Shown here one piece after another: positions 6,751 through 25,913 of a DNA stretch of 32,000 bases (the first letter of the stretch is position 1; the number at the start of each line of letters is the position of its first letter). Origin of the DNA: Cylindrospermopsis raciborskii Cr2010 (GTDB lineage: Bacteria > Cyanobacteriota > Cyanobacteriia > Cyanobacteriales > Nostocaceae); contig NZ_CP065936.1 in NCBI RefSeq assembly GCF_003367075.2, forward strand, positions 3,570,001 to 3,602,000. The letters run 5' to 3'. Both the position numbers and the translations under genes were made by a program. The notes under the pieces are model-generated. The model made no database searches and had not been told where the DNA came from. It saw only the letters and a program-made list of their open reading frames with translations.

Positions 6751-6751
6751 T

Positions 6752-10117: not shown

Positions 10118-10129
10118 GGAATTAGGGAT

Positions 10130-11176: not shown

Positions 11177-11656
11177 TATAAGGGTTCTGGATATGATAGA
11201 GGACATTTAGTTCCATCTGCGGATAGAACAAAAAGCATTAAAGACAATTCCTCCACCTTCTTGATGACGAATATCATTCCACAAACACCAGATAATAATA
11301 GAAATACCTGGGGGAATCTAGAAGATTACAGTAGAGAATTAGTAGAGCAAGGGAAAACCCTGTATATTATTGCTGGTACTTGGGGAAGCAAGGGGAAAAT
11401 CAACAATCTAGTTAATATCCCTAAATATACCTGGAAAATCATTGTTATCTTGGATCGTCCCTCTCAGATTTTAGATATTACTTCTCGCACCCCGGTGATT
11501 GCTGTTAATATTCCCAACGATCAAGAATTAGAGGATGACTGGAAAAAGTTTTTGACAACTGTTGACCAAATTGAGAAACTCACTGAATATGATTTTCTCT
11601 CTAATGTTCCTACTCCCATTCAAAATATTCTTGAAGGTAATATAGCTAAACTGTAA
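11177..11656 (+). pseudogene. DNA/RNA non-specific endonuclease (NucA/Endonuclease_NS family), N-terminally truncated
   Basis: The frame is open from 11177 and reads YKGSGYDRGHLVPSADRTKSIKDNSSTFLMTNIIPQTPDNNRNTWGNLEDYSRELV. This is the DRGH active-site and N..PQ...N motif block of the beta-beta-alpha-Me nuclease family. A TAA lies just upstream and no start or N-terminal half is present. Confidence 0.65.
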
Positions 11657-11667
11657 GTTACTAATAA

Positions 11668-11747
11668 GGCGATTGCGCAGCACTCCCTGCGGGAGATCGC
11701 ACAGCACTCCCTACGGGAGATCGCGAAGCACTCCTTATGAGTAATCG
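11668..11747. repeat. Dispersed-repeat cluster (three tandem units of the GCGxAGCACTCCCTxCGGGAGATCGC family)
   Basis: ggcgattgcgcagcactccctgcgggagatcgcacagcactccctacgggagatcgcgaagcactccttatgagtaatcg. Confidence 0.8.
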
Positions 11748-11767
11748 TACTATTATATAGAATATAA

Positions 11768-11998
11768 CTACAGTTGTGTATTTGTCAAGTTAGCGTCTAA
11801 TGTGTGAGTATTTTCTATATTAGCACTTCTTGTGTAAGCACCTTTGAGGTCAGCACGTTCAAGGTTAGCATCTTCAAGGTTAGCACCTTCGAGGTCAGCA
11901 CCTTCAAGGTTGGAGGGGCATTTTCTAAATGCATGCCCCTCAAAATCTTCAGAATTTTCCCTGAGGAAAACTAGCGCTCTTCTTTTTAATCTAAACAC
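11768..11998 (-). CDS. Small pentapeptide-repeat protein or fragment (76 aa, GTG start)
   Basis: NLEGADLEGANLEDANLERADLKGA pentapeptide repeats. There is only a GTG start, and the position between repeats suggests it may be a remnant. Confidence 0.35.
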   Translation of the reverse strand: MFRLKRRALVFLRENSEDFEGHAFRKCPSNLEGADLEGANLEDANLERADLKGAYTRSANIENTHTLDANLTNTQL

Positions 11999-12014
11999 CG
12001 GAAGATAAACGTAG

Positions 12015-12039
12015 GTTGGGTTGAAGCATGAAACCCAAC
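12015..12039 (+). repeat. REP-like hairpin (GTTGGGTT-N9-AACCCAAC) abutting the RAYT remnant
   Basis: acgtaggttgggttgaagcatgaaacccaacaccc. Related copies lie at 10319-10355 (degenerate: acgtaggttgaattgaactatgaaacccaacacc) and 14191-14217 (cggttgggttgagggatcccaacaccc). Confidence 0.45.
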
Positions 12040-12044
12040 ACCCC

Positions 12045-12614
12045 CATTATTTAATAGAACCATTACAGCCCTCAGATTTGCCTAAAATTATGCACTGGTT
12101 AAATTGGTATACAGCACTGTGCTTTAATCAGATGCTGAATAGAACAGGGCATTTTTGGGAAAAAAGGTATCACAGCACGGGGTTTGCCATGTCAGATAAG
12201 AAAAGGGCATTAAACACGCTGAGATATATACACGGCAATCCTAAAGCAGCAGGAATACAACAGGGAATGTTTTATGATTTTAGTAACTATGGAGTACATG
12301 AGAGATTAGGTAGTGATGGGGTAACAACATGGCATCCAGCCTTTTTAGCGTTAGGGAAAACTTTAGATGAGTGTGCAAACATTTATAAAGGATTTTGTCA
12401 AAAATATCGTCCTCAACCGAAAAAGGTAGAAAAAAACCGCTGGGGGAGTAAACTTTTAGCCGGGATGAAACCAAATCAAAAAAAGAAGGGAACATCACCA
12501 GGACAGCTAAAGCTTTTTTGGGATGAGTTAGACATAACTAGTGAGGAAATAGTAAAGGCAGCAACAATATTTGTCAAGGCAAATTGTTATACACCTAATC
12601 CTAAAAATAAATAG
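12045..12614 (+). pseudogene. REP-associated tyrosine transposase (RAYT, IS200-like Y1 transposase), N-terminally truncated
   Basis: HPHYLIEP (HUH-type motif), LNWYTALCFNQMLNRTGHFWEKRYHS and LRYIHGNPKAAG (catalytic-Tyr helix) fit RAYTs. About 60 N-terminal residues are missing, and the track's TTG start at 12021 lies inside the REP hairpin. Confidence 0.65.
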
Positions 12615-12703
12615 TACCAGGTATCCGAAACCCTGGAACTAGCAAGGTTTCGTTAATTTCTTGTTATTTACAAAAGTTAACAATACTATCAAACCTTTAT
12701 GGG

Positions 12704-13768
12704 TTACACTCTACATGTCTTGACAGGAGGGAACCGCCTGCCTGTCGGGAGTTGACCCGTTGGTGCGGATAATGAAAAGTTTAAATCTTGGTAATAGAGC
12801 CATGAACCTTGTTTTCTCCATCCCACCCTGTCTCCGAAGGATCTCCATACATTCTCATCATATTGTTTTGTTCCTCCCAGGTTTTTGTATATTTCTTGTT
12901 GGACAGATATACCAAATTTACCCTGACTATATTTTAACCACAGATTGTCAATGGTGCGCAATTCCTTACAGGGAAAATTTTCTGCATCTTCTATTCTCAA
13001 CCAACCTTGTCTGTTAGCTACTGCTAACATTACTCTGTCTGTTTCTAAATCTGCTTCTCTAAAGTCTTGAGCTTTCAACAAGGTTTCTAATCTTGTGTAC
13101 CTGCTCGGTGTGGGGGGTGGTGCATTTAAAAAGGTCTGAAGTGGAATTCCATATTCTTCCGGTGTACCGCGTCCATCTCCTAGGCTTTGACTGTGGGTTA
13201 GCCCATGAATACCTACTAATTTACCATTCTCATCTAGGATGGGACCTCCACTCATTCCTTTTAATGCTCCTATTCTATATACCAAGCTATATCCCCCGTC
13301 TCTTGGTTTTTTTAAAATCCGGGAGATTCCATCAAATCTAAAGGTAAAGTCTTGTTTAGAAGGAAACCCACTAATATAAACTACCTGCCCTATGGTTACA
13401 GTATTAGAGTCACCCAATGCCACTACTTGATATTCTTGGTCACTGTTAAATTGAAGGGTGGCTAAATCAAGATTAGGTATTTCTGTTACGTTATTTGATT
13501 GGTATTTTCTCCCATCGTAGGTGATAATTTCAAATGCGCCTTTATACTGAAAAACATGGGAATTGGTTAATACTGTGTAAGTGTTACCATTTTTATTGAT
13601 AATTACACCTGAACCTTGGTCGGGACCGCTAAGGCGAACAGTCACCCTTTCAGCGATCGCGCCGATTTCTTTGGTAGTTAGGGCAATAGTAATAAATGGA
13701 TAGAATATCGTAATAAAGGTGACAAGAATTGCAATAGTGATTAGTTGGGTAAGTTTTTTGCGGTTCAT
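12704..13768 (-). CDS. Membrane-anchored trypsin-like serine protease fused to a C-terminal GUN4-like domain (module copy 1)
   Basis: An N-terminal TM/signal anchor LTQLITIAILVTFITIFYPFITIAL is followed by an S1-type triad context: TNSHV (His), LDLATLQF (Asp), GMSGGPILDENGKLVGIHG (Ser). The C-terminal FPCKELRTIDNLWLKYSQGKFGISVQQEIYKNLGG...VGWRKQGSWLYYQDLNFSLSAPTGQLP matches the GUN4 domain signature. Confidence 0.85.
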   Translation of the reverse strand: MNRKKLTQLITIAILVTFITIFYPFITIALTTKEIGAIAERVTVRLSGPDQGSGVIINKNGNTYTVLTNSHVFQYKGAFEIITYDGRKYQSNNVTEIPNLDLATLQFNSDQEYQVVALGDSNTVTIGQVVYISGFPSKQDFTFRFDGISRILKKPRDGGYSLVYRIGALKGMSGGPILDENGKLVGIHGLTHSQSLGDGRGTPEEYGIPLQTFLNAPPPTPSRYTRLETLLKAQDFREADLETDRVMLAVANRQGWLRIEDAENFPCKELRTIDNLWLKYSQGKFGISVQQEIYKNLGGTKQYDENVWRSFGDRVGWRKQGSWLYYQDLNFSLSAPTGQLPTGRRFPPVKTCRV

Positions 13769-13865
13769 CTCATGGGATGGGTGAGTTTTTTATCAGTATA
13801 GCTATTGTCTCCCAAACCAAGAAACTAGGGTGAATGTATAATAGGGGTATGCCAAAGGAGTGACT

Positions 13866-13894
13866 ATGCCACGTAAACAGCAAGTACCAAAGAA
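13866..13894 (+). pseudogene. Remnant (first about 10 codons) of the Pro/Lys-rich zinc-ribbon gene of the repeated module
   Basis: atgccacgtaaacagcaagtaccaaagaa is identical to 16276-16304 and 22509-22537. Identity ends at 13895. Confidence 0.6.
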
Positions 13895-13895
13895 T

Positions 13896-14010
13896 AGCTT
13901 CCTCCGTACTAATTCTCTCCCCCATGGGTGGTAATCCGGGACAAGGAGTCTAATAGGATTTGAGGGTTGAGTGTGCCATCAGGATTTAACCAGTTGGGCT
14001 CCACCGAAGT
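13896..14010 (-). pseudogene. Remnant of an AAA-ATPase/PD-(D/E)XK paralog (C-terminal pieces, frameshifted)
   Basis: Minus-strand pieces SVEPNWLNPDGTLNPQILLDS and GLPPMGERISTEE parallel IEPRWLNEQGELLPDELLEA and GLPPMGERISTEE of 25989..27533. A further 33-nt piece recurs at 18305-18337. Confidence 0.4.
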
Positions 14011-14016
14011 TAAAGA

Positions 14017-14288
14017 GGCGATTGCGAAGCACTCCCTACGGGAGCTCGCGAAGCAATTTCTATGGGAGATCCCCAGGGGATTAACCATAATTGTTTAAAT
14101 TAACCCCTACCTGGAGACTGTCCGTGGGGGAGACCGGGAATCAATTCCCGGTCTCAAAGCGAAAGTCGGTTGAAAACCGACTGGTTTTGTCGGTTGGGTT
14201 GAGGGATCCCAACACCCCTATGGGATATAAATGCGATTGGGAAGCATTCCCTAGGGGCGATCGCGCAGCACTCCCTTTGGGAGATCGC
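14017..14288. repeat. Dispersed-repeat cluster with nested MITE-like element B copy 2 (14110..14203) and a REP-like hairpin (14191..14217)
   Basis: ggcgattgcgaagcactccctacgggagctcgcgaagcaatttctatgggagatccccaggggattaaccataattgtttaaattaacccctacctggagactg..., ending in ...gcgcagcactccctttgggagatcgc. Confidence 0.8.
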
Positions 14289-14323
14289 AATTGCAAGATA
14301 GCATTTATGGTGACTGCACTACA

Positions 14324-14749
14324 TCATAAAAATTCCTGAAAGAGGTTATCAAATGGTTCTGTATTTTTCCAGCGATAGGTGTTAAAATCTCGATAATCAA
14401 CTGACAAAATTCGCCCATGACCTAGTTGTTCTGCCAGAATAACGAGAGAAGCATCGGCCAAATCCATCGGCAAATCTTGATATTTTTCTATCAGTTCTTC
14501 AATACGCTGGCAATGATTTTGTTTCAGATCAAAGATTTGTAGTTTTCCTGTGGAAATTTTATTAATAAAGATTTTTGGAGCATCCACTCCTACTCTTTTT
14601 TGTAATAAATAGCAAGTCTCCGTAACGACGCACCAGGTTGTAATAAATTGCTGATTAGCTAAATCTTGAAATCTTTTTTTGGCGGCTATATGAACTGCAT
14701 CTTGTTTATTAGCAAGAGCTAACCAAAAGCCTGTATCAACTATGATCAT
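14324..14749 (-). CDS. vapC: Type II toxin-antitoxin system toxin, VapC family (PIN domain)
   Basis: MIIVDTGFWLALANKQD... carries the first acidic PIN residue. ...TTWCVVTETCYLL... and ...PMDLADASLVILAEQLG...ILSVDYRDF are typical PIN motifs. The gene overlaps the upstream small gene by 14 nt. Confidence 0.85.
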   Translation of the reverse strand: MIIVDTGFWLALANKQDAVHIAAKKRFQDLANQQFITTWCVVTETCYLLQKRVGVDAPKIFINKISTGKLQIFDLKQNHCQRIEELIEKYQDLPMDLADASLVILAEQLGHGRILSVDYRDFNTYRWKNTEPFDNLFQEFL

Positions 14750-14975
14750 ATTTTTGATTAAGTTCAGTATCTAAATAGTTTTTATAGTTTTTTGAGAGGT
14801 CTGTTTCAGCTTCTATACAACCGATAAAGTCTGACCAGTCTTGCAAGGAATTTTCTGAAGTTCGTTGTTGATTAAGAGGATAGCGTTTTTTCAGAACTTC
14901 TACAAGTTCGATTATGATTTGTTGTGCATAGGGAGGAAGAGACGCAATATCTTGTTTAATTGTATCTAAGTTCAT
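14736..14975 (-). CDS. Putative VapB-type antitoxin (79 aa, family not recognised)
   Basis: A small acidic ORF immediately upstream of vapC and overlapping it, the classic TA operon geometry. There is no recognisable DNA-binding motif by eye. Confidence 0.55.
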   Translation of the reverse strand: MNLDTIKQDIASLPPYAQQIIIELVEVLKKRYPLNQQRTSENSLQDWSDFIGCIEAETDLSKNYKNYLDTELNQKYDHS

Positions 14976-15119
14976 AATCTGATTTTGCTGTTTCTTTGAT
15001 TATACTTTAGGGAGAATCAGATAAGGTGAGTTAATGAAATGTAACGCAGTTTATCGATAATTCACTTAGTTCACCTTCAGGTCGCACTTTAAGCTCTTAC
15101 TTCATCTGGATTGTAAACT

Positions 15120-15257
15120 GGCGATCGCATCACACTCCCTATGGGCGATTGCGCAGCACTCCCTTTGGGAGATCGCTCTCCTCTAGGGACGTTTCATGTT
15201 CGGTTCCCGTTTGATAAAAGATTGACGGTAAACGTTTTCCGTCAAAGGATGAATCAG
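15120..15257. repeat. Dispersed repeats (15120-15175) followed by MITE-like element A copy 2 (15176-15257, truncated)
   Basis: ggcgatcgcatcacactccctatgggcgattgcgcagcactccctttgggagatcg + ctctcctctagggacgtttcatgttcggttcccgtttgataaaagattgacggtaaacgttttccgtcaaaggatgaatcag. Confidence 0.8.
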
Positions 15258-15487
15258 TAGTGATGGGGTAACAACATGGCATCCAGCCTTTTTAGCGCTA
15301 GGAAAAACTTTAGATGAGTGTGCAAGCATTTATAAAGGATTTTGTCAAAAATATCGTCCTCAACCGAAAAAGGTAGAAAAAAACCGCTGGGGGAGTAAAC
15401 TTTTAGCCGGGATGAAACCAAATCAAAAAAAGAAGGAAACATCACCGGGACAACTAAAGCTCTTTTGGGATGAGTTAGACATAACTA
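15258..15487 (+). pseudogene. RAYT internal fragment (module copy 2)
   Basis: Near-identical to 12308-12543 (…SDGVTTWHPAFLALGKTLDECA.IYKGFCQKYRPQPKKVEKNRWGSKLLAGMKPNQKKK...LFWDELDITN). It lacks both ends. Confidence 0.7.
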
Positions 15488-16178
15488 ATAAGGTTTCTAA
15501 TCTTGTGTACCTGCTCGGGGTGGGGGGTGGTGCATTTAAAAAGGTCTGAAGTGGAATTCCATATTCTTCCGGTGTACCGCGTCCATCTCCTAGGCTTTGA
15601 CTGTGGGTTAGCCCATGAATACCTACTAATTTACCATTCTCATCTAGGATGGGACCTCCACTCATTCCTTTTAATGCTCCTATTCTATATACCAAGCTAT
15701 ATCCCCCGTCTCTTGGTTTTTTTAAAATCCGGGAGATTCCATCAAATCTAAAGGTAAAGTCTTGTTTAGAAGGAAATCCACTAATATAAACTACCTGCCC
15801 TATGGTTACAGTATTAGAGTCACCCAATGCCACTACTTGATATTCTTGGTCACTGTTAAATTGAAGGGTGGCTAAATCAAGATTAGGTATTTCTGTTACG
15901 TTATTTGATTGGTATTTTCTCCCATCGTAGGTGATAATTTCAAATGCGCCTTTATACTGAAAAACATGGGAATTGGTTAATACTGTGTAAGTGTTACCAT
16001 TTTTATTGATAATTACACCTGAACCTTGGTCGGGACCGCTAAGGCGAACAGTCACCCTTTCAGCGATCGCGCCGATTTCTTTGGTAGTTAGGGCAATAGT
16101 AATAAATGGATAGAATATGGTAATAAAGGTGACAAGAATTGCAATAGTGATTAGTTGGGTAAGTTTTTTGCGGTTCAT
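15488..16178 (-). pseudogene. Trypsin-like protease of the module, GUN4 domain deleted (module copy 2)
   Basis: Identical in protein to residues 1-230 of copies 1 and 3 (through ...RYTRLETLL). The reading frame then continues into antisense RAYT sequence (VMSNSSQKSFSCPGDVSFFF, track ORF 15423..16178). Confidence 0.75.
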
Positions 16179-16275
16179 CTCATGGGATGGGTGAGTTTTT
16201 TATCAGTATAGCTATTGTCTCCCAAACCAAGAAACTAGGGTTAATGTATAATAGGGGTATGCCAAAGGAGTGACT

Positions 16276-16935
16276 ATGCCACGTAAACAGCAAGTACCAA
16301 AGAAAGAAGAGCCAAAGCAGGAAACAAAACTGCAAATAATATCTGTGGTTAGGAAAACTGCTGCTCCCCCTCCAGTGGAATCTAATCCTGATGAGATTAT
16401 TCCACCTGCTGAGGAAAATAAAAAGGCTACCCCCCAAAAAGCTGCAAGAAAAAAATCTCAAAAAGCATCACCTGTGGTTCTAGCTCCACCACCTCCTCGG
16501 GATGTTACACCCCCAGTTGAAATACCCCCAGTGGTTATGACTCCCCCAAAAGACAGGGAGGTAGCATTACCTATTGAAATGGTTCCATCAACTCAACCAG
16601 ATGTTACACAACCGGTCGAAACTACTCTGCTAAAAGACCAGGAGGTAGGAGAACCAAATGTAGAATCATTGCCTGATGAAAAGACACAATACAAAAAGAA
16701 AGAGAAATTCTATATCTTTAAACGCCCCTACAAATTTACTCTAAAGGGCGATATAAATTTAATTGAGTGGGAATGCTCTTGTGGATATGAAGACGAAGTG
16801 TCTGTGCTTGTAGGAATGGAAAATTTACTTGTATTTTGTTCCCAGTGCGGGAAACCCAATAAGTTCAGAGGAACTCTATTAAGTCAAAAAGGCGCAACAG
16901 TTGGGGATGAAACTATCCCTGATGTCTCCCCATAA
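16276..16935 (+). CDS. Lys/Pro-rich, apparently disordered protein with C-terminal CxC-x18-CxxC zinc ribbon (module copy 2)
   Basis: GGAG at 16267-16270 lies 5 nt upstream of ATG 16276. The 219-aa product has internal imperfect repeats (DVTPPVE.../DVTQPVE...; PPKDREVALP/LLKDQEVGEP). The C-terminus reads IEWECSCGYEDEVSVLVGMENLLVFCSQCGKPNKF. Only one amino acid (R/K) differs from copy 3. No family recognised. Confidence 0.7.
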   Translation: MPRKQQVPKKEEPKQETKLQIISVVRKTAAPPPVESNPDEIIPPAEENKKATPQKAARKKSQKASPVVLAPPPPRDVTPPVEIPPVVMTPPKDREVALPIEMVPSTQPDVTQPVETTLLKDQEVGEPNVESLPDEKTQYKKKEKFYIFKRPYKFTLKGDINLIEWECSCGYEDEVSVLVGMENLLVFCSQCGKPNKFRGTLLSQKGATVGDETIPDVSP

Positions 16936-16965
16936 AAAAAGCCCCTCACCAGGTGAGGAGCTTTT
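16934..16965. terminator. Bidirectional intrinsic terminator (A-run, GC hairpin, T-run)
   Basis: aaaaaaaGCCCCTCACcagGTGAGGAGCtttt, located between convergent genes. Identical to 23167-23198. Confidence 0.7.
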
Positions 16966-16984
16966 CATTTACCAGTATTTGTTA

Positions 16985-17005
16985 TTAACCGTTGATTGCG
17001 GGAGC
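16985..17005 (-). pseudogene. 21-nt remnant of a psbA 3' end (stop codon plus 6 codons)
   Basis: ttaaccgttgattgcgggagc equals 23218-23238, the 3' end of psbA copy 2. Identity ends at 17006, where the NTase/wHTH cassette begins. Confidence 0.7.
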
Positions 17006-17010
17006 ATTAA

Positions 17011-17685
17011 TTATTGTGCTAACCTTTGAATTAGATTCAAAATTAATTGGTCACGACCAGCATTTTTTGATGCAAATGAAAGTTGACTAGGAGCTATTTC
17101 TAAAAGGTTTTCAAATTCAGTTTTAATCCATGTTTTTATAAACTTCTTGACTTTTATATCTCCCTGTTCTATTTCTTGTTCTAAATTAGGACAGCCATCC
17201 AGGAGTAAAACAATATCCTCTAAATCATGACTAGTATAGAAATTGCGATTTCCTCGACTATTAAATGCCTCAATTTTTGAAGCTAAAAGATAAGTTACCG
17301 GGAAAATATTTATTTTTTGACTACTTGGAAAAGTATAAATAATTGATTTTTTTATTCCTGGCTTGTACCAAGAATTGCTAAAACCAAGGATAGAAGTATC
17401 GTCTGGCATTATATCTAATATTAATTCCTGATACCGCCAACGACATATAACTTTACCTTTATCCTGTTCAAGTCCAATTTGACGTAGCTCTTCTTCAAAA
17501 AGATAGTATTTATTACGAGGAGTAATATTGATAACGCAATCTACATCATTCGTAGGACGGGCATCAATAGCAGAAATTTCGTCAAGATATAGTGATATTG
17601 TTGCCCCACCTATAAAAACTATTTTTTTATTTAATGCGGCAAGTAATTTTGCCGCCTTTTCAAGCATTTGTACTTGTTCATTCAT
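17011..17685 (-). CDS. Nucleotidyltransferase-fold protein, AbiEii/AbiGii-toxin-like
   Basis: The NTase signature is IVFIGGATISLYL...PTNDVDCVI (GG...hDhD). The C-terminal helix ASKIEAFNSRGNRNFYTSHDLEDIVLLLD resembles the AbiEii/DUF1814-type KLxAxxxRxxxRDxxDL region. A 4-nt overlap (ATGA) joins it to the upstream gene. Confidence 0.55.
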   Translation of the reverse strand: MNEQVQMLEKAAKLLAALNKKIVFIGGATISLYLDEISAIDARPTNDVDCVINITPRNKYYLFEEELRQIGLEQDKGKVICRWRYQELILDIMPDDTSILGFSNSWYKPGIKKSIIYTFPSSQKINIFPVTYLLASKIEAFNSRGNRNFYTSHDLEDIVLLLDGCPNLEQEIEQGDIKVKKFIKTWIKTEFENLLEIAPSQLSFASKNAGRDQLILNLIQRLAQ

Positions 17686-18254
17686 CTGATTGTCAGTTTC
17701 TTTTCTAGCTCTTGACTAGCGAGATTTTGTTCTCGCGCACGACCAACCCGAATTGCATCCACCAAACTCAACAACTCATAGAGTTCTGGGTCATTTTTTA
17801 CTGCAGCAGGAACAGATTTATATAATGGGGTAATACTTTGTCCTCTCACAGTTCCCTGTGGATCACTCCATACGTAGATATCGGTAGAATTGACATTCAG
17901 TAAATTTTTTAATGGTTCTGCTGAATGCGCAGTAGCAATTCCCCTCGTTAAAGGACCAGGTTTTTCAGGAAATACGTATTTCAGTCCGTGAATGAGGAAT
18001 TCAAGCAAAGAATGGTTTTTCACTTTTCTAGTAGACCAATCATACAACCCACTGGACTGACATCTTTTGAGACCAGCATAAACTTCCGAAGGACTAATGT
18101 GTAATGCAGTGCCAAGCTGGTTATAAGTCCATTCTGAGTTTTTTAAGTTGTGTACTTTCAGCAAGACAACGATATCTTGAGGTTTTAGCATGACGAGATT
18201 TTCGATGAATCTACATTTTATTCTATATTCGCAAATCGCAAATTTATTTGCCAT
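17682..18254 (-). CDS. Winged-helix DNA-binding protein, AbiEi-antitoxin-like partner of the NTase (alternative start ATG 18191)
   Basis: LKPQDIVVLLKVHNLKNSEWTYNQLGTALHISPSEVYAGLKRCQSSGLY is a wHTH pattern. A C-terminal domain of about 110 aa is of unknown function. The gene is translationally coupled to the NTase gene. Confidence 0.5.
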   Translation of the reverse strand: MANKFAICEYRIKCRFIENLVMLKPQDIVVLLKVHNLKNSEWTYNQLGTALHISPSEVYAGLKRCQSSGLYDWSTRKVKNHSLLEFLIHGLKYVFPEKPGPLTRGIATAHSAEPLKNLLNVNSTDIYVWSDPQGTVRGQSITPLYKSVPAAVKNDPELYELLSLVDAIRVGRAREQNLASQELEKKLTIR

Positions 18255-18360
18255 AATTGCCAGTTATGAAAAAAGTCTCCCACTACGTGAGGAGCTAATT
18301 GGAATATTAACCAGTTGGGACCCACCGAAGTTAAAGAGGCGATCGCGAAGCACTCCCCAT

Positions 18361-18392
18361 AAAAAAAGCCCCACACTAGGTGTGGAGCTTTT
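18361..18392. terminator. Variant copy of the bidirectional terminator downstream of psbA copy 1
   Basis: aaaaaaaGCCCCACACtagGTGTGGAGCtttt. Relative to 16941-16961, the stem carries a compensatory T:A to A:T change. Confidence 0.7.
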
Positions 18393-18411
18393 CATTTACC
18401 AGGACTGATTA

Positions 18412-19494
18412 TTAACCGTTGATTGCGGGGGCGGTTAATGCTACAGGTGCTACTTCACCAGCAGCTAGGTCTAAGGGGAAGTTGTGGGCGTTACGCTCGT
18501 GCATTACTTCCATACCTAGGTTAGCGCGGTTGATTACGTCAGCCCATGTACCGATTACGCGTCCTTGAGAATCAATGATGGATTGGTTGAAGTTGAATCC
18601 ATTCAGGTTGAATGCCATGGTGCTTACACCCAGTGCTGTAAACCAGATTCCTACTACTGGCCATGCTGCCAAGAAGAAGTGTAGTGAACGGCTGTTGTTG
18701 AATGAAGCATATTGGAATATCAAGCGTCCGAAGTAACCGTGTGCTGCTACGATGTTGTAGGTTTCTTCCTCTTGTCCGAACTTGTAACCATAGTTCTGAG
18801 ACTCGGTTTCGGTTGTTTCTCTTACTAAGGAAGATGTTACTAAGGAACCGTGCATAGCGCTGAACAAGCTACCACCGAATACACCTGCTACTCCTAACAT
18901 GTGGAAGGGGTGCATGAGGATGTTATGCTCTGCTTGGAACACAATCATGAAGTTGAAGGTTCCAGAGATACCTAAGGGCATACCATCAGAGAATGAACCT
19001 TGTCCGATGGGGTAGATTAAGAATACTGCGGTAGCTGCTGCCAAAGGAGCGGAGAATGCTACGCAAATCCAAGGGCGCATGCCTAAACGGAAGGATAGTT
19101 CCCATTCACGACCTAGGTAGCAGGCTACACCAATCAAGAAGTGGAAAATTACTAGTTGGTAAGGACCACCGTTGTATAACCATTCATCTAAGGATGCAGC
19201 TTCCCAAATTGGGTAGAAGTGCAAGCCAATAGCGTTGGAGGAAGGAACTACAGCACCGGAGATGATGTTGTTACCGTACATTAGGGAACCAGCTACGGGT
19301 TCGCGAATACCGTCGATGTCCACGGGGGGAGCAGCAATAAAAGCAATGATGAAGCAAGTAGTAGCTGCGAGAAGGGTGGGGATCATTAACACGCCAAACC
19401 AGCCAATATAAAGGCGGTTGTTGGTGCTGGTGATAAATTCACAGAAGCGATCCCATACGTTGGCGCTTTGGCGCTGTTGAATGGCAGTGGTCAT
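18412..19494 (-). CDS. psbA: Photosystem II reaction-centre protein D1 (E130, D1:2-type), copy 1
   Basis: The 360-aa product is unmistakably D1 (…[26 protein letters not shown]…[30 protein letters not shown]…[23 protein letters not shown] + C-terminal extension). By direct count, residue 130 is Glu. Confidence 0.97.
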
Positions 19495-19522
19495 GGTTGG
19501 CGTTGCATATTTGCGGGATGAA

Positions 19523-19969
19523 TCAACTAAACGCGGGTATTACTTCATACTTTAAATAGTGAAGTAATAATTTAATTGAATACCTAAGCATATCTACAGA
19601 TTTTGAATAGCATAGCGTTTTTCTATGTAGTCGCGCTAAGTAGTGACGTAAACGTGTATTTTCACCCTCTACCCTAGTCATATATGTTTTGCTCACAATA
19701 TGATCCTCTGGCTGAATAAAACTCGGATAAACCCTCCACCCATCAGTAACATAAAAAAAGCATTGCCAGAGTTTAACGATGTCCCACAAAGGTTGAAATG
19801 CTTGTGAGCTGTGGTCTCCCACAACCCAAGCCAGGATATTTTTACGGAAGTGATTTACTGCTGTCCACAACCATATTTTGTTTTTTTTTGATCCCACAAA
19901 GGTCTCCAACTCATCAAGCTCACCTACCAAGGGTGTTTCCTGGTGGAGCATCTGGAAGTATGGAACCAA
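19523..19969 (-). CDS. IS1 transposase C-terminal ORF (InsB-like DDE domain), probably expressed by frameshift fusion with InsA
   Basis: [22 protein letters not shown]...[13 protein letters not shown]...[36 protein letters not shown]. It overlaps the InsA frame by 50 nt. Confidence 0.8.
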
Positions 19970-20210
19970 TTTGTTTTAGCCAGTAAATAATAGTTGTATG
20001 ATGAACGCCTTTATCGCGTTCAATTGCTCTAAATCCCATACCGTTAACATAAGAGCGCAGGCAACTTTGTTTAACTTCTTCTGAATAGCCTTTAGGTGGA
20101 CTATAGACATCGATAAATTGACGACCACAATCAACACAAATGTGATTTTGTTTACCTCGACGTTTGCCATTCTTTCTGATTTTGGAAGACCCGCAGTTTG
20201 GACAATGCAC
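19920..20210 (-). CDS. IS1 transposase N-terminal ORF (InsA-like, zinc finger plus HTH)
   Basis: MHCPNCGSSKIRKNGKRRGKQNHICVDCGRQF...GMGFRAIERDKGVHHTTIIYWLKQ. Confidence 0.8.
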   Translation of the reverse strand: MHCPNCGSSKIRKNGKRRGKQNHICVDCGRQFIDVYSPPKGYSEEVKQSCLRSYVNGMGFRAIERDKGVHHTTIIYWLKQIGSILPDAPPGNTLGR

Positions 20211-20249
20211 AGTAGATTACCTCAATTCATACCTCTATTATGCAACGCC

Positions 20250-20470
20250 GAATCAGTCGGTGCAAAAGTTAAGTTTTTACCCCCCTATTCTCCAGACTTA
20301 TCTCCGATAGAATTGTGTTGGTCAAAATTAAAGCAATTTCTCCGTAGTCGGGAGGCACGAACATTAGAAGCCCTAAATGAGGCCATGACAAGTGCAGTAA
20401 ATTATATTACAGCAGAGGATGCGCTTAATTGGTTCAATCATTGTGGTTTATTTACATGAAAACCGCTGTA
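20250..20470 (+). mobile_element. 3' fragment of an IS630-family element, truncated by the IS1
   Basis: It encodes ESVGAKVKFLPPYSPDLSPIELCWSKLKQFLRSREARTLEALNEAMTSAVNYITAEDALNWFNHCGLFT, identical to the C-terminus of 24873..25376. It ends with the IS630 terminal sequence acatgaaaaccgctgta. Confidence 0.85.
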
Positions 20471-20503
20471 ATATAGCTTGAGTTAAGGGGTGAGGAATGA
20501 AAA

Positions 20504-20539
20504 GGGCGATTGCGCAGCACTCCCTGCGGGATCTCGCAC
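20504..20539. repeat. Single unit of the dispersed-repeat family
   Basis: gggcgattgcgcagcactccctgcgggatctcgcac. Confidence 0.7.
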
Positions 20540-20661
20540 TGTATAACATCCTTTGATAATTTCTTAGGGCTAGGTCTTTTTTCTAGATGCGATCGCTTAC
20601 CCATTTCCTCTCAAAGGAAAAATGGTGAACCTTTCCTTGAAGACAGTTAATGGCAATGACG

Positions 20662-20957
20662 GACGATTCCGAAGCACTTCCTACAGGCGGGGCGATCGCA
20701 ATATATGATATACACCGACAGTAGTTCGGTGAAATTTCCCTTGAGAATCTCCTGGGGTTACTCTTTCTTCTGCAGGCGATCGCATTGCACTCCCTACAGG
20801 CGATCGCATCACACTCCCAATGTGGGATTGCGCAGCACTCCCTACAGGAGATCGCTCTCCCCTAGGCACGTTTCATGTTCGGTTCCCGTTTGATAAAACA
20901 TTGACGGTAAACGTTTTCCGTCAAAGGATGAATCAGTTATTTCAAGGGGGTAGGGAT
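20662..20957. repeat. Dispersed-repeat cluster (20662-20854) followed by MITE-like element A copy 3 (20855-20957)
   Basis: ...ggcgatcgcattgcactccctacaggcgatcgcatcacactcccaatgtgggattgcgcagcactccctacaggagatcg + ctctcccctaggcacgtttcatgttcggttcccgtttgataaaacattgacggtaaacgttttccgtcaaaggatgaatcagttatttcaagggggtagggat. Confidence 0.8.
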
Positions 20958-20974
20958 CACCCCCTGTGGGAGAT

Positions 20975-21248
20975 ACTGTGTTTTAATCAGATGCTGAAAG
21001 GATTTTGTCAAAAATATCGTCCTCAACCGAAAAAGGTGGAAAAAAACCGGTGGGGGAGTAAACTTTTGGCGGGGATGAAACCAAATCAAAAAAAGAAGGG
21101 AACATCACCAGGACAGCTAAAGCTTTTTTGGGATGAGTTAGACATAACTAATAAGGAAATAGTAAAGGCAGCAACAATATTTGTCAAGGCAAATTGTTAT
21201 ACACCTAATCCTAAAAATAAATTATATGAACTAGCAAGGTTTCGTTAA
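20975..21248 (+). pseudogene. RAYT remnant with internal deletion (module copy 3)
   Basis: ...(A)LCFNQML joins directly to KGFCQKYRPQPKKVEKNRWGSKLLAGMKPNQKKKGTSPGQLKLFWDELDITNKEIVKAATIFVKANCYTPNPKNK. Relative to copy 1, 12132-12389 is deleted. The N-terminal part of track ORF 20820..21248 is translated repeat sequence. Confidence 0.7.
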
Positions 21249-21295
21249 TTTCTTGTTATTTACAAAAGTTAACAATACTATCAAACCTTTATGGG

Positions 21296-22411
21296 TTACA
21301 CTCTACATGTCTTGACAGGAGGGAAGTACCTCCTCCTCAGTTGCAGTGCCACCGACCGCAGCGCCCAAATCATCCGCAAGTTTGGGAGTTGACCCGTTGG
21401 TGCGGATAATGAAAAGTTTAAATCTTTGTAATCGAGCCATGAACCTTGTTTTCTCCATCCCACCCTGTCTCCCAAGGATCTCCATACATTCACATCAAAT
21501 TGTTTTGTTCCTCCCAGGTTTTTGTATATTTCTTGTTGGACAGATATACCAAATTTACCCTGACTATATTTTAACCACAGATTGTCAATGGTGCGTAATT
21601 CTTGACAGGGAAAATTTTCTGCATCTTCTACTCTCAACCAAATCTCGCTTTGTCTGTTAGCTACTGCTAACATTACTCTGTCTGTTTCTAAATCTGCTTC
21701 TCTAAAGTCTTGAGCTTTCAACAAGGTTTCTAATCTTGTGTACCTGCTCGGGGTGGGGGGTGGTGCATTTAAAAAGGTCTGAAGTGGAATTCCATATTCT
21801 TCCGGTGTACCGCGTCCATCTCCTAGGCTTTGACTGTGGGTTAGCCCATGAATACCTACTAATTTACCATTCTCATCTAGGATGGGACCTCCACTCATTC
21901 CTTTTAATGCTCCTATTCTATATACCAAGCTATATCCCCCGTCTCTTGGTTTTTTTAAAATCCGGGAGATTCCATCAAATCTAAAGGTAAAGTCTTGTTT
22001 AGAAGGAAACCCACTAATATAAACTACCTGCCCTATGGTTACAGTATTAGAGTCACCCAATGCCACTACTTGATATTCTTGGTCACTGTTAAATTGAAGG
22101 GTGGCTAAATCAAGATTAGGTATTTCTGTTACGTTATTTGATTGGTATTTTCTCCCATCGTAGGTGATAATTTCAAATGCGCCTTTATACTGAAAAACAT
22201 GGGAATTGGTTAATACTGTGTAAGTGTTACCATTTTTATTGATAATTACACCTGAACCTTGGTCGGGACCGCTAAGGCGAACAGTCACCCTTTCAGCGAT
22301 CGCGCCGATTTCTTTGGTAGTTAGGGCAATAGTAATAAATGGATAGAATATGGTAATAAAGGTGACAAGAATTGCAATAGTGATTAGTTGGGTAAGTTTT
22401 TTGCGGTTCAT
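21296..22411 (-). CDS. Membrane-anchored trypsin-like serine protease fused to a GUN4-like domain (module copy 3, 371 aa)
   Basis: Residues 1-256 are identical to copy 1. The GUN4 domain is diverged (SEIWLRVEDAENFPCQELRT..., QFDVNVWRSLGDRV, LDYKDLNF) and the C-terminal tail is longer (…GQLPNLRMIWALRSVALQLRRRYFPPVKTCRV). Confidence 0.85.
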   Translation of the reverse strand: MNRKKLTQLITIAILVTFITIFYPFITIALTTKEIGAIAERVTVRLSGPDQGSGVIINKNGNTYTVLTNSHVFQYKGAFEIITYDGRKYQSNNVTEIPNLDLATLQFNSDQEYQVVALGDSNTVTIGQVVYISGFPSKQDFTFRFDGISRILKKPRDGGYSLVYRIGALKGMSGGPILDENGKLVGIHGLTHSQSLGDGRGTPEEYGIPLQTFLNAPPPTPSRYTRLETLLKAQDFREADLETDRVMLAVANRQSEIWLRVEDAENFPCQELRTIDNLWLKYSQGKFGISVQQEIYKNLGGTKQFDVNVWRSLGDRVGWRKQGSWLDYKDLNFSLSAPTGQLPNLRMIWALRSVALQLRRRYFPPVKTCRV

Positions 22412-22508
22412 CTCATGGGATGGGTGAGTTTTTTATCAGTATAGCTATTGTCTCCCAAACCAAGAAACTAGGGCTAATGTATAATAGGGGTATGCCAAAG
22501 GAGTGACT

Positions 22509-23168
22509 ATGCCACGTAAACAGCAAGTACCAAAGAAAGAAGAGCCAAAGCAGGAAACAAAACTGCAAATAATATCTGTGGTTAAGAAAACTGCTGCTCC
22601 CCCTCCAGTGGAATCTAATCCTGATGAGATTATTCCACCTGCTGAGGAAAATAAAAAGGCTACCCCCCAAAAAGCTGCAAGAAAAAAATCTCAAAAAGCA
22701 TCACCTGTGGTTCTAGCTCCACCACCTCCTCGGGATGTTACACCCCCAGTTGAAATACCCCCAGTGGTTATGACTCCCCCAAAAGACAGGGAGGTAGCAT
22801 TACCTATTGAAATGGTTCCATCAACTCAACCAGATGTTACACAACCGGTCGAAACTACTCTGCTAAAAGACCAGGAGGTAGGAGAACCAAATGTAGAATC
22901 ATTGCCTGATGAAAAGACACAATACAAAAAGAAAGAGAAATTCTATATCTTTAAACGCCCCTACAAATTTACTCTAAAGGGCGATATAAATTTGATTGAG
23001 TGGGAATGCTCTTGTGGATATGAAGACGAAGTGTCTGTGCTTGTAGGAATGGAAAATTTACTTGTATTTTGTTCCCAGTGCGGGAAACCCAATAAGTTCA
23101 GAGGAACTCTATTAAGTCAAAAAGGCGCAACAGTTGGGGATGAAACTATCCCTGATGTCTCCCCATAA
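22509..23168 (+). CDS. Lys/Pro-rich protein with C-terminal zinc ribbon (module copy 3)
   Basis: Same as 16276..16935 with one substitution (K for R). It lies 97 bp from the divergent protease start. Confidence 0.7.
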   Translation: MPRKQQVPKKEEPKQETKLQIISVVKKTAAPPPVESNPDEIIPPAEENKKATPQKAARKKSQKASPVVLAPPPPRDVTPPVEIPPVVMTPPKDREVALPIEMVPSTQPDVTQPVETTLLKDQEVGEPNVESLPDEKTQYKKKEKFYIFKRPYKFTLKGDINLIEWECSCGYEDEVSVLVGMENLLVFCSQCGKPNKFRGTLLSQKGATVGDETIPDVSP

Positions 23169-23198
23169 AAAAAGCCCCTCACCAGGTGAGGAGCTTTT
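23167..23198. terminator. Bidirectional intrinsic terminator shared by the zinc-ribbon gene and psbA
   Basis: aaaaaaaGCCCCTCACcagGTGAGGAGCtttt, located between stop codons 23166-23168 (+) and 23218-23220 (-). Confidence 0.7.
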
Positions 23199-23217
23199 CA
23201 TTTACCAGTATTGATTA

Positions 23218-24300
23218 TTAACCGTTGATTGCGGGAGCGGTTAATGCTACAGGTGCTACTTCACCAGCAGCTAGGTCTAAGGGGAAGTTGTGGGCGTTAC
23301 GCTCGTGCATTACTTCCATACCTAGGTTAGCGCGGTTGATTACGTCAGCCCATGTACCGATTACGCGTCCTTGAGAATCAATGATGGATTGGTTGAAGTT
23401 GAATCCATTCAGGTTGAATGCCATGGTGCTTACACCCAGTGCTGTAAACCAGATTCCTACTACTGGCCATGCTGCCAAGAAGAAGTGTAGTGAACGGCTG
23501 TTGTTGAATGAAGCATATTGGAATATCAAGCGTCCGAAGTAACCGTGTGCTGCTACGATGTTGTAGGTTTCTTCCTCTTGTCCGAACTTGTAACCATAGT
23601 TCTGAGACTCGGTTTCGGTTGTTTCTCTTACTAAGGAAGATGTTACTAAGGAACCGTGCATAGCGCTGAACAAGCTACCACCGAATACACCTGCTACTCC
23701 TAACATGTGGAAGGGGTGCATGAGAATGTTATGCTCTGCTTGGAACACAATCATGAAGTTGAAGGTTCCAGAGATACCTAAGGGCATACCATCAGAGAAT
23801 GAACCTTGTCCGATGGGGTAGATTAAGAATACTGCGGTAGCAGCTGCCAAAGGAGCGGAGAATGCTACGCAAATCCAAGGGCGCATGCCTAACCGGAAGG
23901 ATAGTTCCCATTCACGACCTAGGTAGCAGGCTACACCAATCAAGAAGTGGAAAATTACTAGTTGGTAAGGACCACCGTTGTATAACCATTCATCTAAGGA
24001 TGCAGCTTCCCAAATGGGGTAGAAGTGCAAGCCAATGGCATTGGAGGAGGGAACCACAGCACCGGAGATGATGTTGTTACCGTACATTAGGGAACCAGCT
24101 ACGGGTTCGCGAATACCGTCGATGTCCACGGGGGGAGCAGCAATAAAAGCAATGATGAAGCAAGTGGTAGCTGCGAGAAGGGTGGGGATCATTAACACCC
24201 CGAACCAGCCAATATAGAGGCGGTTGTTGGTGCTGGTGATAAATTCACAGAAGCGATCCCATACGTTGGCGCTTTGGCGCTGTTGAATGGCAGTGGTCAT
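23218..24300 (-). CDS. psbA: Photosystem II reaction-centre protein D1 (E130, D1:2-type), copy 2
   Basis: The protein is identical to 18412..19494. The DNA differs at about a dozen positions, all synonymous. Confidence 0.97.
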
Positions 24301-24368
24301 GGTTTTATAATTGCGGTTTTACGAGAGATTTATGTATGTTCTGGTAGGTGTTTCTACCTTATGAACTT

Positions 24369-24397
24369 ATATTAAGACAAATATTTAGTTTTGTAAA
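24369..24397 (-). promoter_or_regulatory. Candidate sigma70-type psbA promoter (-35 TTTACA, 17-nt spacer, -10 TAATAT)
   Basis: The minus strand reads cctcTTTACAaaactaaatatttgtctTAATATaagttca, about 70 nt upstream of the psbA ATG. This consensus-like spacing is typical of strong psbA promoters. Confidence 0.5.
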
Positions 24398-24667
24398 GAG
24401 GTTTTTACAAAATTTTTAATAATTTTGCCAATTAGGGATTTTCCTATATGTGGTAGGGGTTTCCGATTATTAAGTTACTAGTTTTGACGCTCAGTTTCAC
24501 TTGTAATGATTATTTTATGTTAACTCCTATATAATTTAATTTGATTAAGTTAGTTTTTATTTATATCCTGTTATAGGAATTGTGATAGGAAGTGCAATCT
24601 GGAGAGTGCTACTGCTTCGCAATCTTATGGACTTTTGATATACTGAGGTAAAATACTTACAAGTAAG

Positions 24668-24862
24668 ATGAATAAAATCCTCTGCGTAAAACCAGACTGT
24701 TTGCACCAGAATCCAAACGACTGTAAATTCTGCCAAAAATGTGGCAACAAATTAATTTTGCGAGAGCGGTTCATCCCCCGGGAAATTTTGGGGGAGGGAG
24801 GATTTGGACGTACCTTTTTAGCAACAGATACGGGTAAACCATCTCAACCTACCTGTGTGATT
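24668..24862 (+). pseudogene. N-terminal fragment of a Ser/Thr protein kinase with Cys4 zinc-ribbon prefix, interrupted by IS630
   Basis: CVKPDCLHQNPNDCKFCQKCGNKL is followed by the kinase glycine loop ILGEGGFGRTFLA. The IS630 terminus lies at 24862. Joining across the IS gives only about 22 more codons before a stop, so most of the kinase is missing. Confidence 0.6.
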
Positions 24863-25913
24863 ACAGCGGTTTTCATGTAAATAAACCACAATGATTGAAC
24901 CAATTAAGCGCATCCTCTGCTGTAATATAATTTACTGCACTTGTCATGGCCTCATTTAGGGCTTCTAATGTTCGTGCCTCCCGACTACGGAGAAATTGCT
25001 TTAATTTTGACCAACACAATTCTATCGGAGATAAGTCTGGAGAATAGGGGGGTAAAAACTTAACTTTTGCACCGACTGATTCAATTGACAATCTCACGCG
25101 CTCGGCATAATGAACCTTTAAATTATCCATAACAACAATAGCCCCTTTCCATAATTGAGGTACTAAAACCTGATTTACATAAGTGAGAAATACTTCTGTA
25201 TTTGTGCTTCCCTCTACAGTCATTGCTGCCAGAATTCCATCCATATTTAAAGCCCCAATCAGAGAAATATTTTTGCCCTTGTTTCCTGGTACGCTACCAA
25301 TTGCTCTTTGTCCATCTTGGCTTCTGGCAAACAACCTTGACATCCCTAAATTTATCCCCGATTCATCTAAAAACACTAAATTTCTAATATCAACTGTATC
25401 TACCCAACGACGATAATCATGCCTTAATTCTTGAACACGTGGAGTCTCCTGTTCACTGGCATTTAGACTTTTTTTTTATGACGTAGACCCAACTTTTCTA
25501 AGGCTCGATGCATGGTTGTGATACTAAAACTAGTGCCCGTCGTTTCTCTCAGGCGATCGCATAATTCTGAAAGCAGTAAATCATTTTTCTCATCCAGCCA
25601 AGACTTGATCATGTTTAAATATTCGCCTGCAATTATAGGCTTTTCATATCCTCCACATTGCTTTGGCTCAACTTGCCCAGTTTCACGATAACGACGTACT
25701 AAATTTCTCACAAATGATAAGCTGACCTTGAATCTTTCTGCCAACTGGCGTTGAGATCCCTCTCGAGCAACCCATGCTACAATCACGCGATTACGCAAAT
25801 CTATTGAATAAGGTTTTGGTATATAATTTGACAGCATTTCTACCCTATTTTAGTTTATTACCCTTATTATAGCTTATCTTATTTTGGAGTTTAACTACAT
25901 GAAAATTGCTGTA
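24862..25913 (-). mobile_element. IS630-family (Tc1/mariner-like) insertion sequence, about 1.05 kb, apparently complete
   Basis: Terminal inverted repeats are tacagcggttttcatgt (24862-24878) and acatgaaaattgctgta (25897-25913), with TA dinucleotides at both junctions. Confidence 0.8.
24873..25837 (-). CDS. IS630 transposase (HTH ORF 25463..25837 plus DDE ORF 24873..25376; joined by a -1 shift on an A9 run)
   Basis: ORF1 ends ...RHKKKV*. Slipping -1 on cataaaaaaaaagtc gives ...KKKSLNASEQETPRVQELRHDYRRWVDTVDIRNLVFLDESGINLG..., which continues into the DDE domain (…VMDNLKVHY…PPYSPDLSPIELCWSKLK). Confidence 0.75.

Follow-up and report, generated by a model that had tools for sequence, protein, structure and literature searches.

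The 32,000-nt stretch of Cylindrospermopsis raciborskii Cr2010 studied here (contig NZ_CP065936.1, positions 3,570,001 to 3,602,000; hereafter the window) raises the question of how, and how long ago, one gene module came to be present three times in three states of decay. The module is composed of a remnant of a REP-associated tyrosine transposase (RAYT) gene, a gene for a protease fused to a GUN4 domain, a gene for a putative zinc-ribbon protein (ZnR) and the photosystem gene psbA, which encodes the D1 protein. A preliminary description of the locus had taken the copies for a recent segmental amplification. The comparisons reported below point to another answer: with a probability of roughly 0.7, the copies belong to an old family of segmental duplicates, which would have been built in two or more steps before the strains diverged, then homogenised, and decayed differently in each strain.

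Three collinear copies of the module

Comparison of the window with itself by BLAST returned three module copies, designated c1, c2 and c3, at nearly the coordinates first proposed. Every copy-copy match was direct and collinear, with an E-value of 0. The c1 and c3 copies were 94.0% identical with gaps counted (12387-13894 against 20997-22537; 24 mismatches and 69 gap positions), while c1 and c2 shared a segment of 99.4% identity (13077-13894 against 15487-16304) and another of 96.2% (12310-12546 against 15257-15493). Between c2 and c3 the identity was 99.5% in the first part (15487-17005 against 21720-23238; 7 mismatches in 1519 positions) and 98.4% in the second (18353-19498 against 23159-24304). 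Three collinear multi-gene copies with 94-99.5% identity constitute a segmental duplication family, whose members are homologous and differently worn, as had been described. The identity of mostly over 99% that was attributed to the copies applies to their protease-ZnR part and fails for the rest. A first block had been drawn at 12045-13894, of which the homology end at 13894 stands, but 12045-12309, apart from a 24-nt patch, occurs in c1 only. Gene content was obtained from Pfam, NCBIfam and PADLOC profile searches, which agree in essence with the original gene list; no RNA genes were detected when the whole window was scanned with Rfam and for tRNAs.

The RAYT gene is an N-terminally truncated remnant of 197 aa in c1 (12021-12614, plus strand; Pfam Y1_Tnp, E = 2.6e-7). 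It covers profile positions 46-119 of 121, so that the Y1 (HUH) domain is only partial, and its score against NCBIfam REP_Tyr_transpos (24.5, E = 2e-5) lies below the curated cut-off of 80, which justifies the term remnant used from the outset. An ORF of identical size was also called in locus L002 and in three loci that recur throughout this text, L010 (JBPFSD01), L016 (CP195152) and L019 (CP091284); a fourth, L013, is CP060822. The piece in c2 (15257-15493, plus strand) equals c1 positions 12310-12546 and joins the protease gene at 15486/15487, and in the c3 remnant (20975-21250, plus strand) the equivalent of c1 positions 12116-12139 is fused directly to that of 12387-12614.

The protease-GUN4 gene is full-length in c3 (21296-22411, minus strand; 371 aa), where an N-terminal membrane helix is followed by a trypsin-like domain (Trypsin_2, 1.5e-24), a GUN4 domain (9.8e-41) and a 59-nt hypervariable tail (21325-21383). 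Trypsin-like and GUN4 domains thus lie in one polypeptide, the architecture of a GUN4-fused protease. Aligned to c3, the 354-aa gene of c1 (12704-13768, minus strand; Pfam Trypsin_2 1.2e-24, GUN4 9.8e-40) lacks 6 nt in frame and carries a short form of the tail. The c2 gene (15423-16178, minus strand) encodes a truncated protease of 251 aa in which Pfam detects Trypsin_2 only, confirming that this copy is without the GUN4 half. GUN4 was lost there by a 530-bp deletion at 15486/15487 with 3-4 bp of microhomology. This deletion is specific to the window, being absent from L010, L016, L019 and L013, and a full c2 gene of 376-377 aa is retained in CP091284, CP195152 and JBPFSD01; metagenome scans gave no match to the deletion junction.

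The tail of the GUN4 genes showed a variability of its own. In all GUN4-domain genes, a stretch of 14-104 nt that resists alignment and is rich in G and T on the coding strand separates a conserved LSAPTGQLP sequence from a conserved FPPVKTCRV end before the stop codon. It is located at 21325-21383 in c3 and 12733-12746 in c1, and was also seen in L010, L013, L015, L016, L019, L003, L007 and L014. The segment differs even among orthologs of nearly identical strains, and owing to its length the terminal FPPVKTCRV motif is out of frame in 5 of 12 GUN4 copies. A diversity-generating retroelement was considered as its source and rejected, since the window encodes no reverse transcriptase and the differences among variants include length and are not confined to adenines. 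The GUN4 half (21296-21750) also matches positions 309-427 of the 450 in the PADLOC PD-T4-6 model (E = 3e-36), which implies a predicted GUN4-like domain within that model; nothing specific was found in the literature on PD-T4-6 together with GUN4.

ZnR proteins of 219 aa were obtained by translation in c2 (16276-16935, plus strand) and c3 (22509-23168, plus strand), with one amino-acid difference between them. Their N-terminal part is rich in proline, lysine and glutamate, and the C-terminal part carries a CxC-x19-CxxC motif that is invariant in four homologs. No match was found in any family library (Pfam, NCBIfam, PADLOC), and an AlphaFold2 model was unusable and was left aside (mean predicted local distance difference test score 37.7). 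The family consists of three clusters restricted to this clade, with one homolog labelled Cylindrospermopsis raciborskii, and a scan of representative genome contigs found no relatives. Exact-protein look-ups returned no identical record for the c3 ZnR or for the 371-, 354- and 251-aa proteases. In c1 only the first 29 nt of ZnR are left (13866-13894, plus strand); alignment to c3 agrees with the earlier observation that homology to c2 and c3 halts there.

Two psbA genes complete the module. The psbA2 gene (18412-19494, minus strand) is an intact D1 ORF without a native 5' untranslated region (UTR) or promoter, and psbA3 (23218-24300, minus strand) is the positional ortholog of the gene named psbA-0 in CP195152. 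The translation of psbA3, identical to that of psbA2, scored 803 bits against the NCBIfam psbA equivalog TIGR01151 (cut-off 596). There are no amino-acid and 13 synonymous differences between the two genes, 12 of them in the first 576 nt, and both encode an E130-type D1. The native region upstream of psbA3 (24301-24859, minus strand) shares 98-99% identity with sequences upstream of psbA in other strains, and contains a promoter-like site at 24397-24369, identified as a consensus match only. The psbA and ZnR genes converge on a bidirectional terminator that lies between them, so they are not linked as an operon.

Conservation of the copies in related genomes

If the amplification were recent and specific to this genome, its junctions should be too; the synteny check in relatives, once run, gave the opposite result. 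At least three other assemblies, CP091284, CP195152 and JBPFSD01, contain the c1-c2 tandem with junctions of c1 and c2 that match those of the window, and CP060822 shares the c2 junction. In all three tandem-bearing strains, as in the window, c1 is separated from c2 by a gene pair for a 141-aa PIN-domain toxin and a 79-aa partner (14324-14975, minus strand; Pfam PIN 1.6e-7). The break of ZnR in c1 is identical in these strains, and window positions 9344-14049 are collinear with them across it. Their common layout corresponds to window 9344-19498 and runs from HicAB through an endonuclease, the 197-aa RAYT remnant, the broken c1, the PIN pair, c2, ZnR and an AbiE-like cassette described below to psbA. 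The closest relative, CP091284, has 3 mismatches in 4012 bp from c2 to psbA2; CP195152 and JBPFSD01 are near relatives as well.

The junctions of c3 also recur. Its type of left junction was found in the sister strain GCA_006523545.1, the only other assembly with a copy-3-specific ORF of 142 aa, and in CP060823, the 146-kb plasmid p-r.curvispora1 of C. curvispora GIHE-G1. The plasmid matched the c3 query with 97.3% identity over 99% of its length and carries a flank, element A (see below), the c3-type RAYT junction, protease-GUN4, ZnR, the cassette and psbA. This flank of 290 bp (20506-20795, plus strand) is common to the plasmid and to the psbA-0 locus of CP195152 and JBPFSD01, where it directly abuts psbA-0. 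On the other side, the psbA-0 locus of CP195152 aligns without gaps to window 23159-31576 (99.1%), with collinearity from the exact start of an 80-bp repeat at the psbA 3' end, so that psbA3 occupies the position of the second psbA of other strains.

Because junctions of c1, c2 and c3 are shared with other assemblies, and the GUN4 and RAYT parts group by copy position, the proposal of a recent, genome-specific amplification is not supported. As far as these alignments indicate, the copies predate the divergence of the sampled Cylindrospermopsis strains.

Probable gene conversion among the copies and the psbA genes

The near-identity of the copies, which had been read as a sign of youth, does not distinguish paralogs from orthologs. 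Across the strains, all copies share 98.4-99.8% identity in the protease-ZnR part, and c2 and c3 of the window (99.5%) are no closer to each other than c3 is to copies in other strains (99.4-99.8%). The c1 of the window differs from its paralogs c2 and c3 at 4-5 sites and from its CP091284 ortholog at 13. In the RAYT and GUN4 part, copies of different type show 90-96% identity, and the sequences cluster according to copy position instead of genome. The protease half has a synonymous divergence of 0.007-0.03 and the GUN4 core one of 0.03-0.1, with ratios of nonsynonymous to synonymous polymorphism (pN/pS) of 0.28 and 0.71, respectively.

Across strains, psbA variants are mosaic and differ only at synonymous sites with an identical protein, the pattern of a family under concerted evolution. 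The psbA3 of the window differs from that of GCA_006523545.1 at 16 sites, although the flanks are about 99-100% identical, and psbA2 has no difference from the psbA of CP091284. The D1 protein and the AbiEii-like protein of the cassette are sequence-identical in several assemblies of the Cylindrospermopsis group. Concerted evolution and gene conversion of psbA have been documented in Nostocales (PMC6053082). The closeness of paralogs relative to orthologs, the mosaic psbA genes and the position-grouped GUN4 and RAYT parts argue for gene conversion instead of recency, and we infer that conversion between copies keeps the protease-ZnR part and psbA near-identical. High paralog identity would here reflect gene conversion rather than youth, which corrects an attractive but wrong reading. 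The mosaic structure also led us to drop psbA sequence as an orthology marker between loci.

Copy number of psbA varies among the relatives. At least six copies are present in AP018317, and CP091284 has only one, with c2 on one side and an upstream region of the window psbA3 type on the other, an arrangement that fits a deletion between two psbA copies. Nothing specific was found in the literature on psbA rearrangements in Cylindrospermopsis. Plasmids of Nostoc, Calothrix, Leptolyngbya and Pseudanabaena carry psbA genes 77-84% identical to that of the window, and therefore psbA is not strictly chromosomal in cyanobacteria.

The AbiE-like cassette and the 80-bp repeats

The c2 copy is interrupted by a cassette of 1,347 bp (17006-18352, minus strand) between two direct repeats of 80 bp. 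This interruption at the psbA 3' end had been reported with a right bound at 18357, corrected here to 18352. The cassette encodes an AbiEii-like nucleotidyltransferase of 224 aa (17011-17685, minus strand), which matches Pfam AbiEii with 27.8 bits (cut-off 22.5) and PADLOC PDC-M21B at 6.7e-54, and a partner protein of 190 aa (17682-18254, minus strand) that matches PDC-M21A at 4.1e-52. The two ORFs overlap by 4 nt and have the two-gene organization of AbiE/PDC-M21, making the cassette a candidate two-gene, AbiE-like defence system.

Sequence comparison identified the left repeat, c2L (16926-17005, no strand assigned), as a relic containing the bidirectional terminator and the last 21 nt of psbA, and the right repeat, c2R (18353-18432, no strand assigned), as the native psbA2 3' flank, a divergent copy of the same 80 bp. 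They are 90% identical, with eight differences that include a compensatory pair in the hairpin. The c3 copy has a single 80-bp terminator and psbA 3' end (23159-23238, no strand assigned), with a hairpin of the c2L type and the remainder of the native psbA type.

The claim that c2 had gained the cassette was overturned by its distribution. The cassette recurs in 11 loci from at least nine genomes with 99.8-100% identity; c2L adjoins it, with an identical ZnR-side junction, in 11 of 11 loci, and c2R follows it in the nine loci where an IS630 element has not cut off that end. As the 11 loci share one junction and keep ZnR alongside, a single ancient insertion is indicated, and on the same grounds the possibility that the cassette is a mobile element targeting psbA was discarded. 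ZnR accompanies the cassette even without psbA or protease (L017, L018, L020). The exact c2L-cassette junction was not found in representative genome contigs.

Since the c2L relic ends in psbA sequence, ZnR once abutted a psbA gene. Degraded ZnR relics without a cassette lie directly beside psbA in AP018317 and, together with the c2L relic, indicate that the cassette-less layout is older. These relics are located directly downstream of two psbA copies (L005, 11288-11488; L006, 11061-11251), and ZnR and psbA seem to have been duplicated together in that species too. Metagenome scans gave no match to a cassette-less ZnR-psbA junction. The absence of the cassette from c3 could mean either that the older layout was kept or that the cassette was lost by recombination between the 80-bp repeats. 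In c1, self-BLAST detected a 51-nt relic of the right end of the cassette (13986-14036, plus strand; 94% identical to 18307-18357), which suggests that c1 may formerly have carried more of the unit.

Mobile elements and repeats at the junctions

An insertion sequence of the IS1 family (751 bp, 25-nt inverted repeats; 19499-20249, minus strand; NCBIfam transpos_IS1 153 bits, cut-off 100) is located at the 5' end of psbA2. Its transposase, inverted repeats and length of about 0.75 kb are those of the family, and a 5-bp deletion splits the 232-aa transposase. The preliminary description had rightly placed an IS1 here and missed the 252-bp deletion that accompanies it. In GCA_006523545.1 the IS1 sits 252 bp upstream of psbA2, and in the window it abuts position -4; the missing 252 bp end 4 nt before the start codon and include the promoter-like site equivalent to 24397-24369. 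The loss has the form that would be expected of an IS1-adjacent deletion. Next to the IS1 is the 3' fragment of an IS630 element (223 bp; 20250-20472, plus strand), an inverted and 100% identical copy of 24860-25082. That interval is part of a full IS630-family element upstream of psbA3, identified by profile match (24860-25915, minus strand).

The left borders of c2 and c3 are alike in composition, each being preceded, as had been noted, by the same block of short repeats and by a MITE-like element (miniature inverted-repeat transposable element), here called element A. In c2, sequence comparison showed the 24-nt HIP1-containing repeats followed by an element A truncated on its right side (15117-15256, plus strand); in c3 (20773-20973, plus strand) the repeats span 20773-20855 and a complete element A spans 20856-20973. 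Element A measures 118 bp and has imperfect terminal inverted repeats (11-nt arms, 82% complementary) and a central palindrome. Three copies are found in the window and many in L013. It joins the RAYT remnant at different points in c2 and c3. The presence of element A in the RAYT gene of c2 and c3, and its absence from that of c1, lead to the copy order (c1,(c2,c3)) with later independent deletions.

Against a chance expectation of none, the window contains 18 matches to the 24-nt HIP1-containing repeat (GCGATYGCRNWGCACTCCC...). All are on the plus strand, and the repeat occurs at every module border (14018, 15121/15145, 18339, 20506 and 20776-20824). It may be a REP-like partner of the decayed RAYT. 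The unit consists of GCGATYGCRNWGCACTCCC plus a CTCCC-TAC-GGGAG hairpin and is often in tandem; further sites are 6178, 7576, 11669-11717 and 14233-14257.

Strain-specific deletions appear to have occurred between direct repeats of 818 bp, 109 bp and possibly 80 bp. In GCA_006523545.1, where assembly collapse may be involved, window positions 13077-15486 and 26512-27730 are missing, each between direct repeats, those of 26512-27730 being 109 bp long.

Origin of the copies

A history that accommodates these results would start from a unit with the RAYT gene, then protease-GUN4 and then ZnR, convergent with psbA. At least two duplication steps, in the order (c1,(c2,c3)), would have preceded the split of the sampled strains. 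The cassette entered once, long ago, leaving the 80-bp relic beside ZnR. The junctions would be the product of homologous recombination between psbA copies and between 80-bp relics, of short-homology deletions at the 24-nt HIP1-containing repeats, and of IS1 and IS630 activity. Decay restricted to the window comprises the 530-bp GUN4 deletion in c2, the 252-bp deletion beside IS1 and the 5-bp deletion within IS1.

Amplification within this genome, with c3 as the pristine master, c2 gaining the cassette and IS1, and c1 truncated later, could account for the 99.5% identity of c2 and c3 over 1.5 kb, for c3 being the sole window copy with all genes intact, and for the 21-nt psbA relic in c2L, which places the cassette-less layout first. 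Such an event is nevertheless very unlikely to have been recent, given that several other genomes have an identical c1 truncation, c2 left junction and set of cassette junctions, that the join between c3 and its RAYT differs from that of c2, and that c3 is no closer to the c2 of the window than to the copies of other strains. Still less credible is an artefact of assembly with repeats expanded or mis-joined: all major junctions except the two specific to the window appear in at least one independent assembly, complete genomes included, and the copies have their own diagnostic substitutions and flanks. What speaks for an artefact is that repeats of 0.8-1.5 kb with more than 99% identity are hard for short-read assemblers, and that c1 and c2 are merged into one in GCA_006523545.1.

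Within an old family, c3 could be either an inherited third unit lost in some strains or a plasmid import through the flank and the 80 bp or psbA. In the latter case, a unit like that of p-r.curvispora1 would have recombined with the resident psbA-0 locus, with the left crossover in the 290-bp flank and the right one in the 80-bp relic or psbA, and the cassette would have been left behind. The plasmid carries everything from the flank through psbA, including the cassette, the flank abutting psbA-0 in CP195152 and JBPFSD01 resembles an empty site, and 13 synonymous differences separate psbA3 from psbA2, compared with 7 in 1519 positions of the adjacent protease-ZnR part. It is equally conceivable that flank and module were adjacent in the ancestor and that CP195152 lost the module; moreover, psbA is too mosaic for a donor to be assigned, and identity between c3 and the plasmid is just 91.6% over the flank and left border. 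Transfer of c3 is thus a possibility of some weight, held with considerable doubt. Selection for several identical E130-type psbA genes, with the neighbours carried along, is compatible with an old family but rather unlikely as its driving force. Stress-type D1 commonly comes from several near-identical genes, all psbA copies here encode an identical D1 and differ only synonymously, and AP018317 holds six or more of them; however, psbA2 in the window has lost its promoter and 5' UTR, c1 is without psbA, and the cassette-ZnR unit is also found without psbA (L017, L012).

The old, homogenised family of duplicates remains the preferred explanation, and several points weigh against it. The order of events was reconstructed from some ten assemblies within one narrow clade, and the signal that would root it is erased by gene conversion. 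A plasmid origin of c3 would mean that this copy was not inherited in place, and the 80-bp sequences, a mosaic of variants across loci, blur the history of its cassette. The window structure is as assembled, and the window-only junctions 15486/15487 and 19498/19499 are supported by no other assembly. In GCA_006523545.1, which has many 1-nt indels, the merged c1/c2 may have arisen by assembly collapse and carries little weight.

Relationship to known systems

Fusions of GUN4 to trypsin-like protease, kinase, caspase and TIR domains have been described in cyanobacterial conflict systems (Kaur, Burroughs, Iyer and Aravind 2020, PMC7159879). The module shares with them the trypsin-like protease with a C-terminal GUN4, and its setting in an island with toxin-antitoxin pairs and a restriction-modification system. 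It differs in that no partner of the VMAP, vWA-MoxR or NTPase kind lies right next to it in the window; the immediate neighbours of protease-GUN4 are ZnR and the RAYT remnant, unlike in an NTPase/vWA conflict operon, and VWA, Trypsin-TPR and TRADD-type genes occur in related strains only, several kilobases away. The unit looks like conflict or defence cargo beside a recombination-prone, multi-copy photosystem gene, and not like a photosynthesis operon.

Several copies, an identical D1, synonymous mosaic sites and a conserved 3' flank are features shared with the psbA multigene family of Nostocales (PMC6053082). Here, in contrast, the duplication also takes in non-photosynthetic genes, reaching up to about 2.4 kb past psbA, and a relic of the psbA 3' end survives detached from any psbA. 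The cassette resembles the AbiE (AbiEi/AbiEii) type IV toxin-antitoxin or abortive infection systems and PDC-M21 in being a two-gene operon with strong matches of both genes to PDC-M21A/B and in the AbiEii nucleotidyltransferase fold signature GG...DVD of the downstream gene; it departs from them in that the upstream 190-aa protein matches no AbiEi Pfam family and in its linkage to ZnR at every locus. As at tRNA-gene integration sites of islands, the 3' end of a conserved gene flanks the cassette as a direct repeat (80 bp, 90%), but there is no integrase in or beside it, and the one junction across 11 loci differs from repeated site-specific insertion. The 252-bp deletion flush with one IS1 end and the deletions between direct repeats are those of IS- and repeat-mediated island rearrangement, with nothing unusual and the 24-nt HIP1-containing repeat at junctions as the sole addition. 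Paralog gene conversion, repeat-mediated deletion and IS activity, to judge from these sequences, are ordinary mechanisms, none of them new and all usual for a repeat-rich genomic island.

Tentatively, psbA paralogs and the detached 80-bp relic might serve as portable homology through which a conflict or defence module of protease-GUN4, ZnR and the AbiE-like PDC-M21 pair could be duplicated, deleted or traded between chromosomal psbA loci and a plasmid. If so, a multi-copy photosystem gene would be the recombination anchor of a defence island in this clade, and the recurrence of AAA_35/NucS-like, GUN4, trypsin and Uma2 genes beside psbA in related genomes would be a consequence. The locus offers an example of a multi-copy photosystem gene and its 3' flank shaping a variable island in bloom-forming Cylindrospermopsis, and psbA2, whose promoter has just been lost, is a natural test of the importance of psbA copy number.

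Other features of the genomic island

Outside the module, the order of a glycosyltransferase gene, IS1, HicAB, the Uma2 genes and the module varies between strains (window 1-9400 compared with L010, L016 and L024), and an IS1 abuts the position equivalent to window 9344 in L010 and L024. This pattern indicates that the island has undergone further rearrangements linked to IS1, among them a large deletion in CP073250.

A 514-aa AAA_35 protein whose C-terminal region is NucS_C-like is encoded at window 25989-27533, and there are partial repeats at 27594-27839. The AAA_35 family is multi-copy, with 78-88% DNA identity (L003, L006-L009, L014, L019, L022-L026), and its members are repeatedly found beside psbA in related genomes, AP018317 having several psbA-AAA_35 units. 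In L014 (GCA_001676585.1), eleven tandem 175-bp units with the psbA terminator hairpin adjoin an AAA_35 gene (18295-20237).

A pentapeptide-repeat ORF is built from 15/30-nt tandem repeats of about 20 units (10476-10937 and 11837-11910), with inverted partial copies at 11820-11911, and is overlapped by long antisense ORFs. A 42-nt tandem repeat (4681-4847; 3.4 copies, 94% matches) lies inside a Uma2-family gene.

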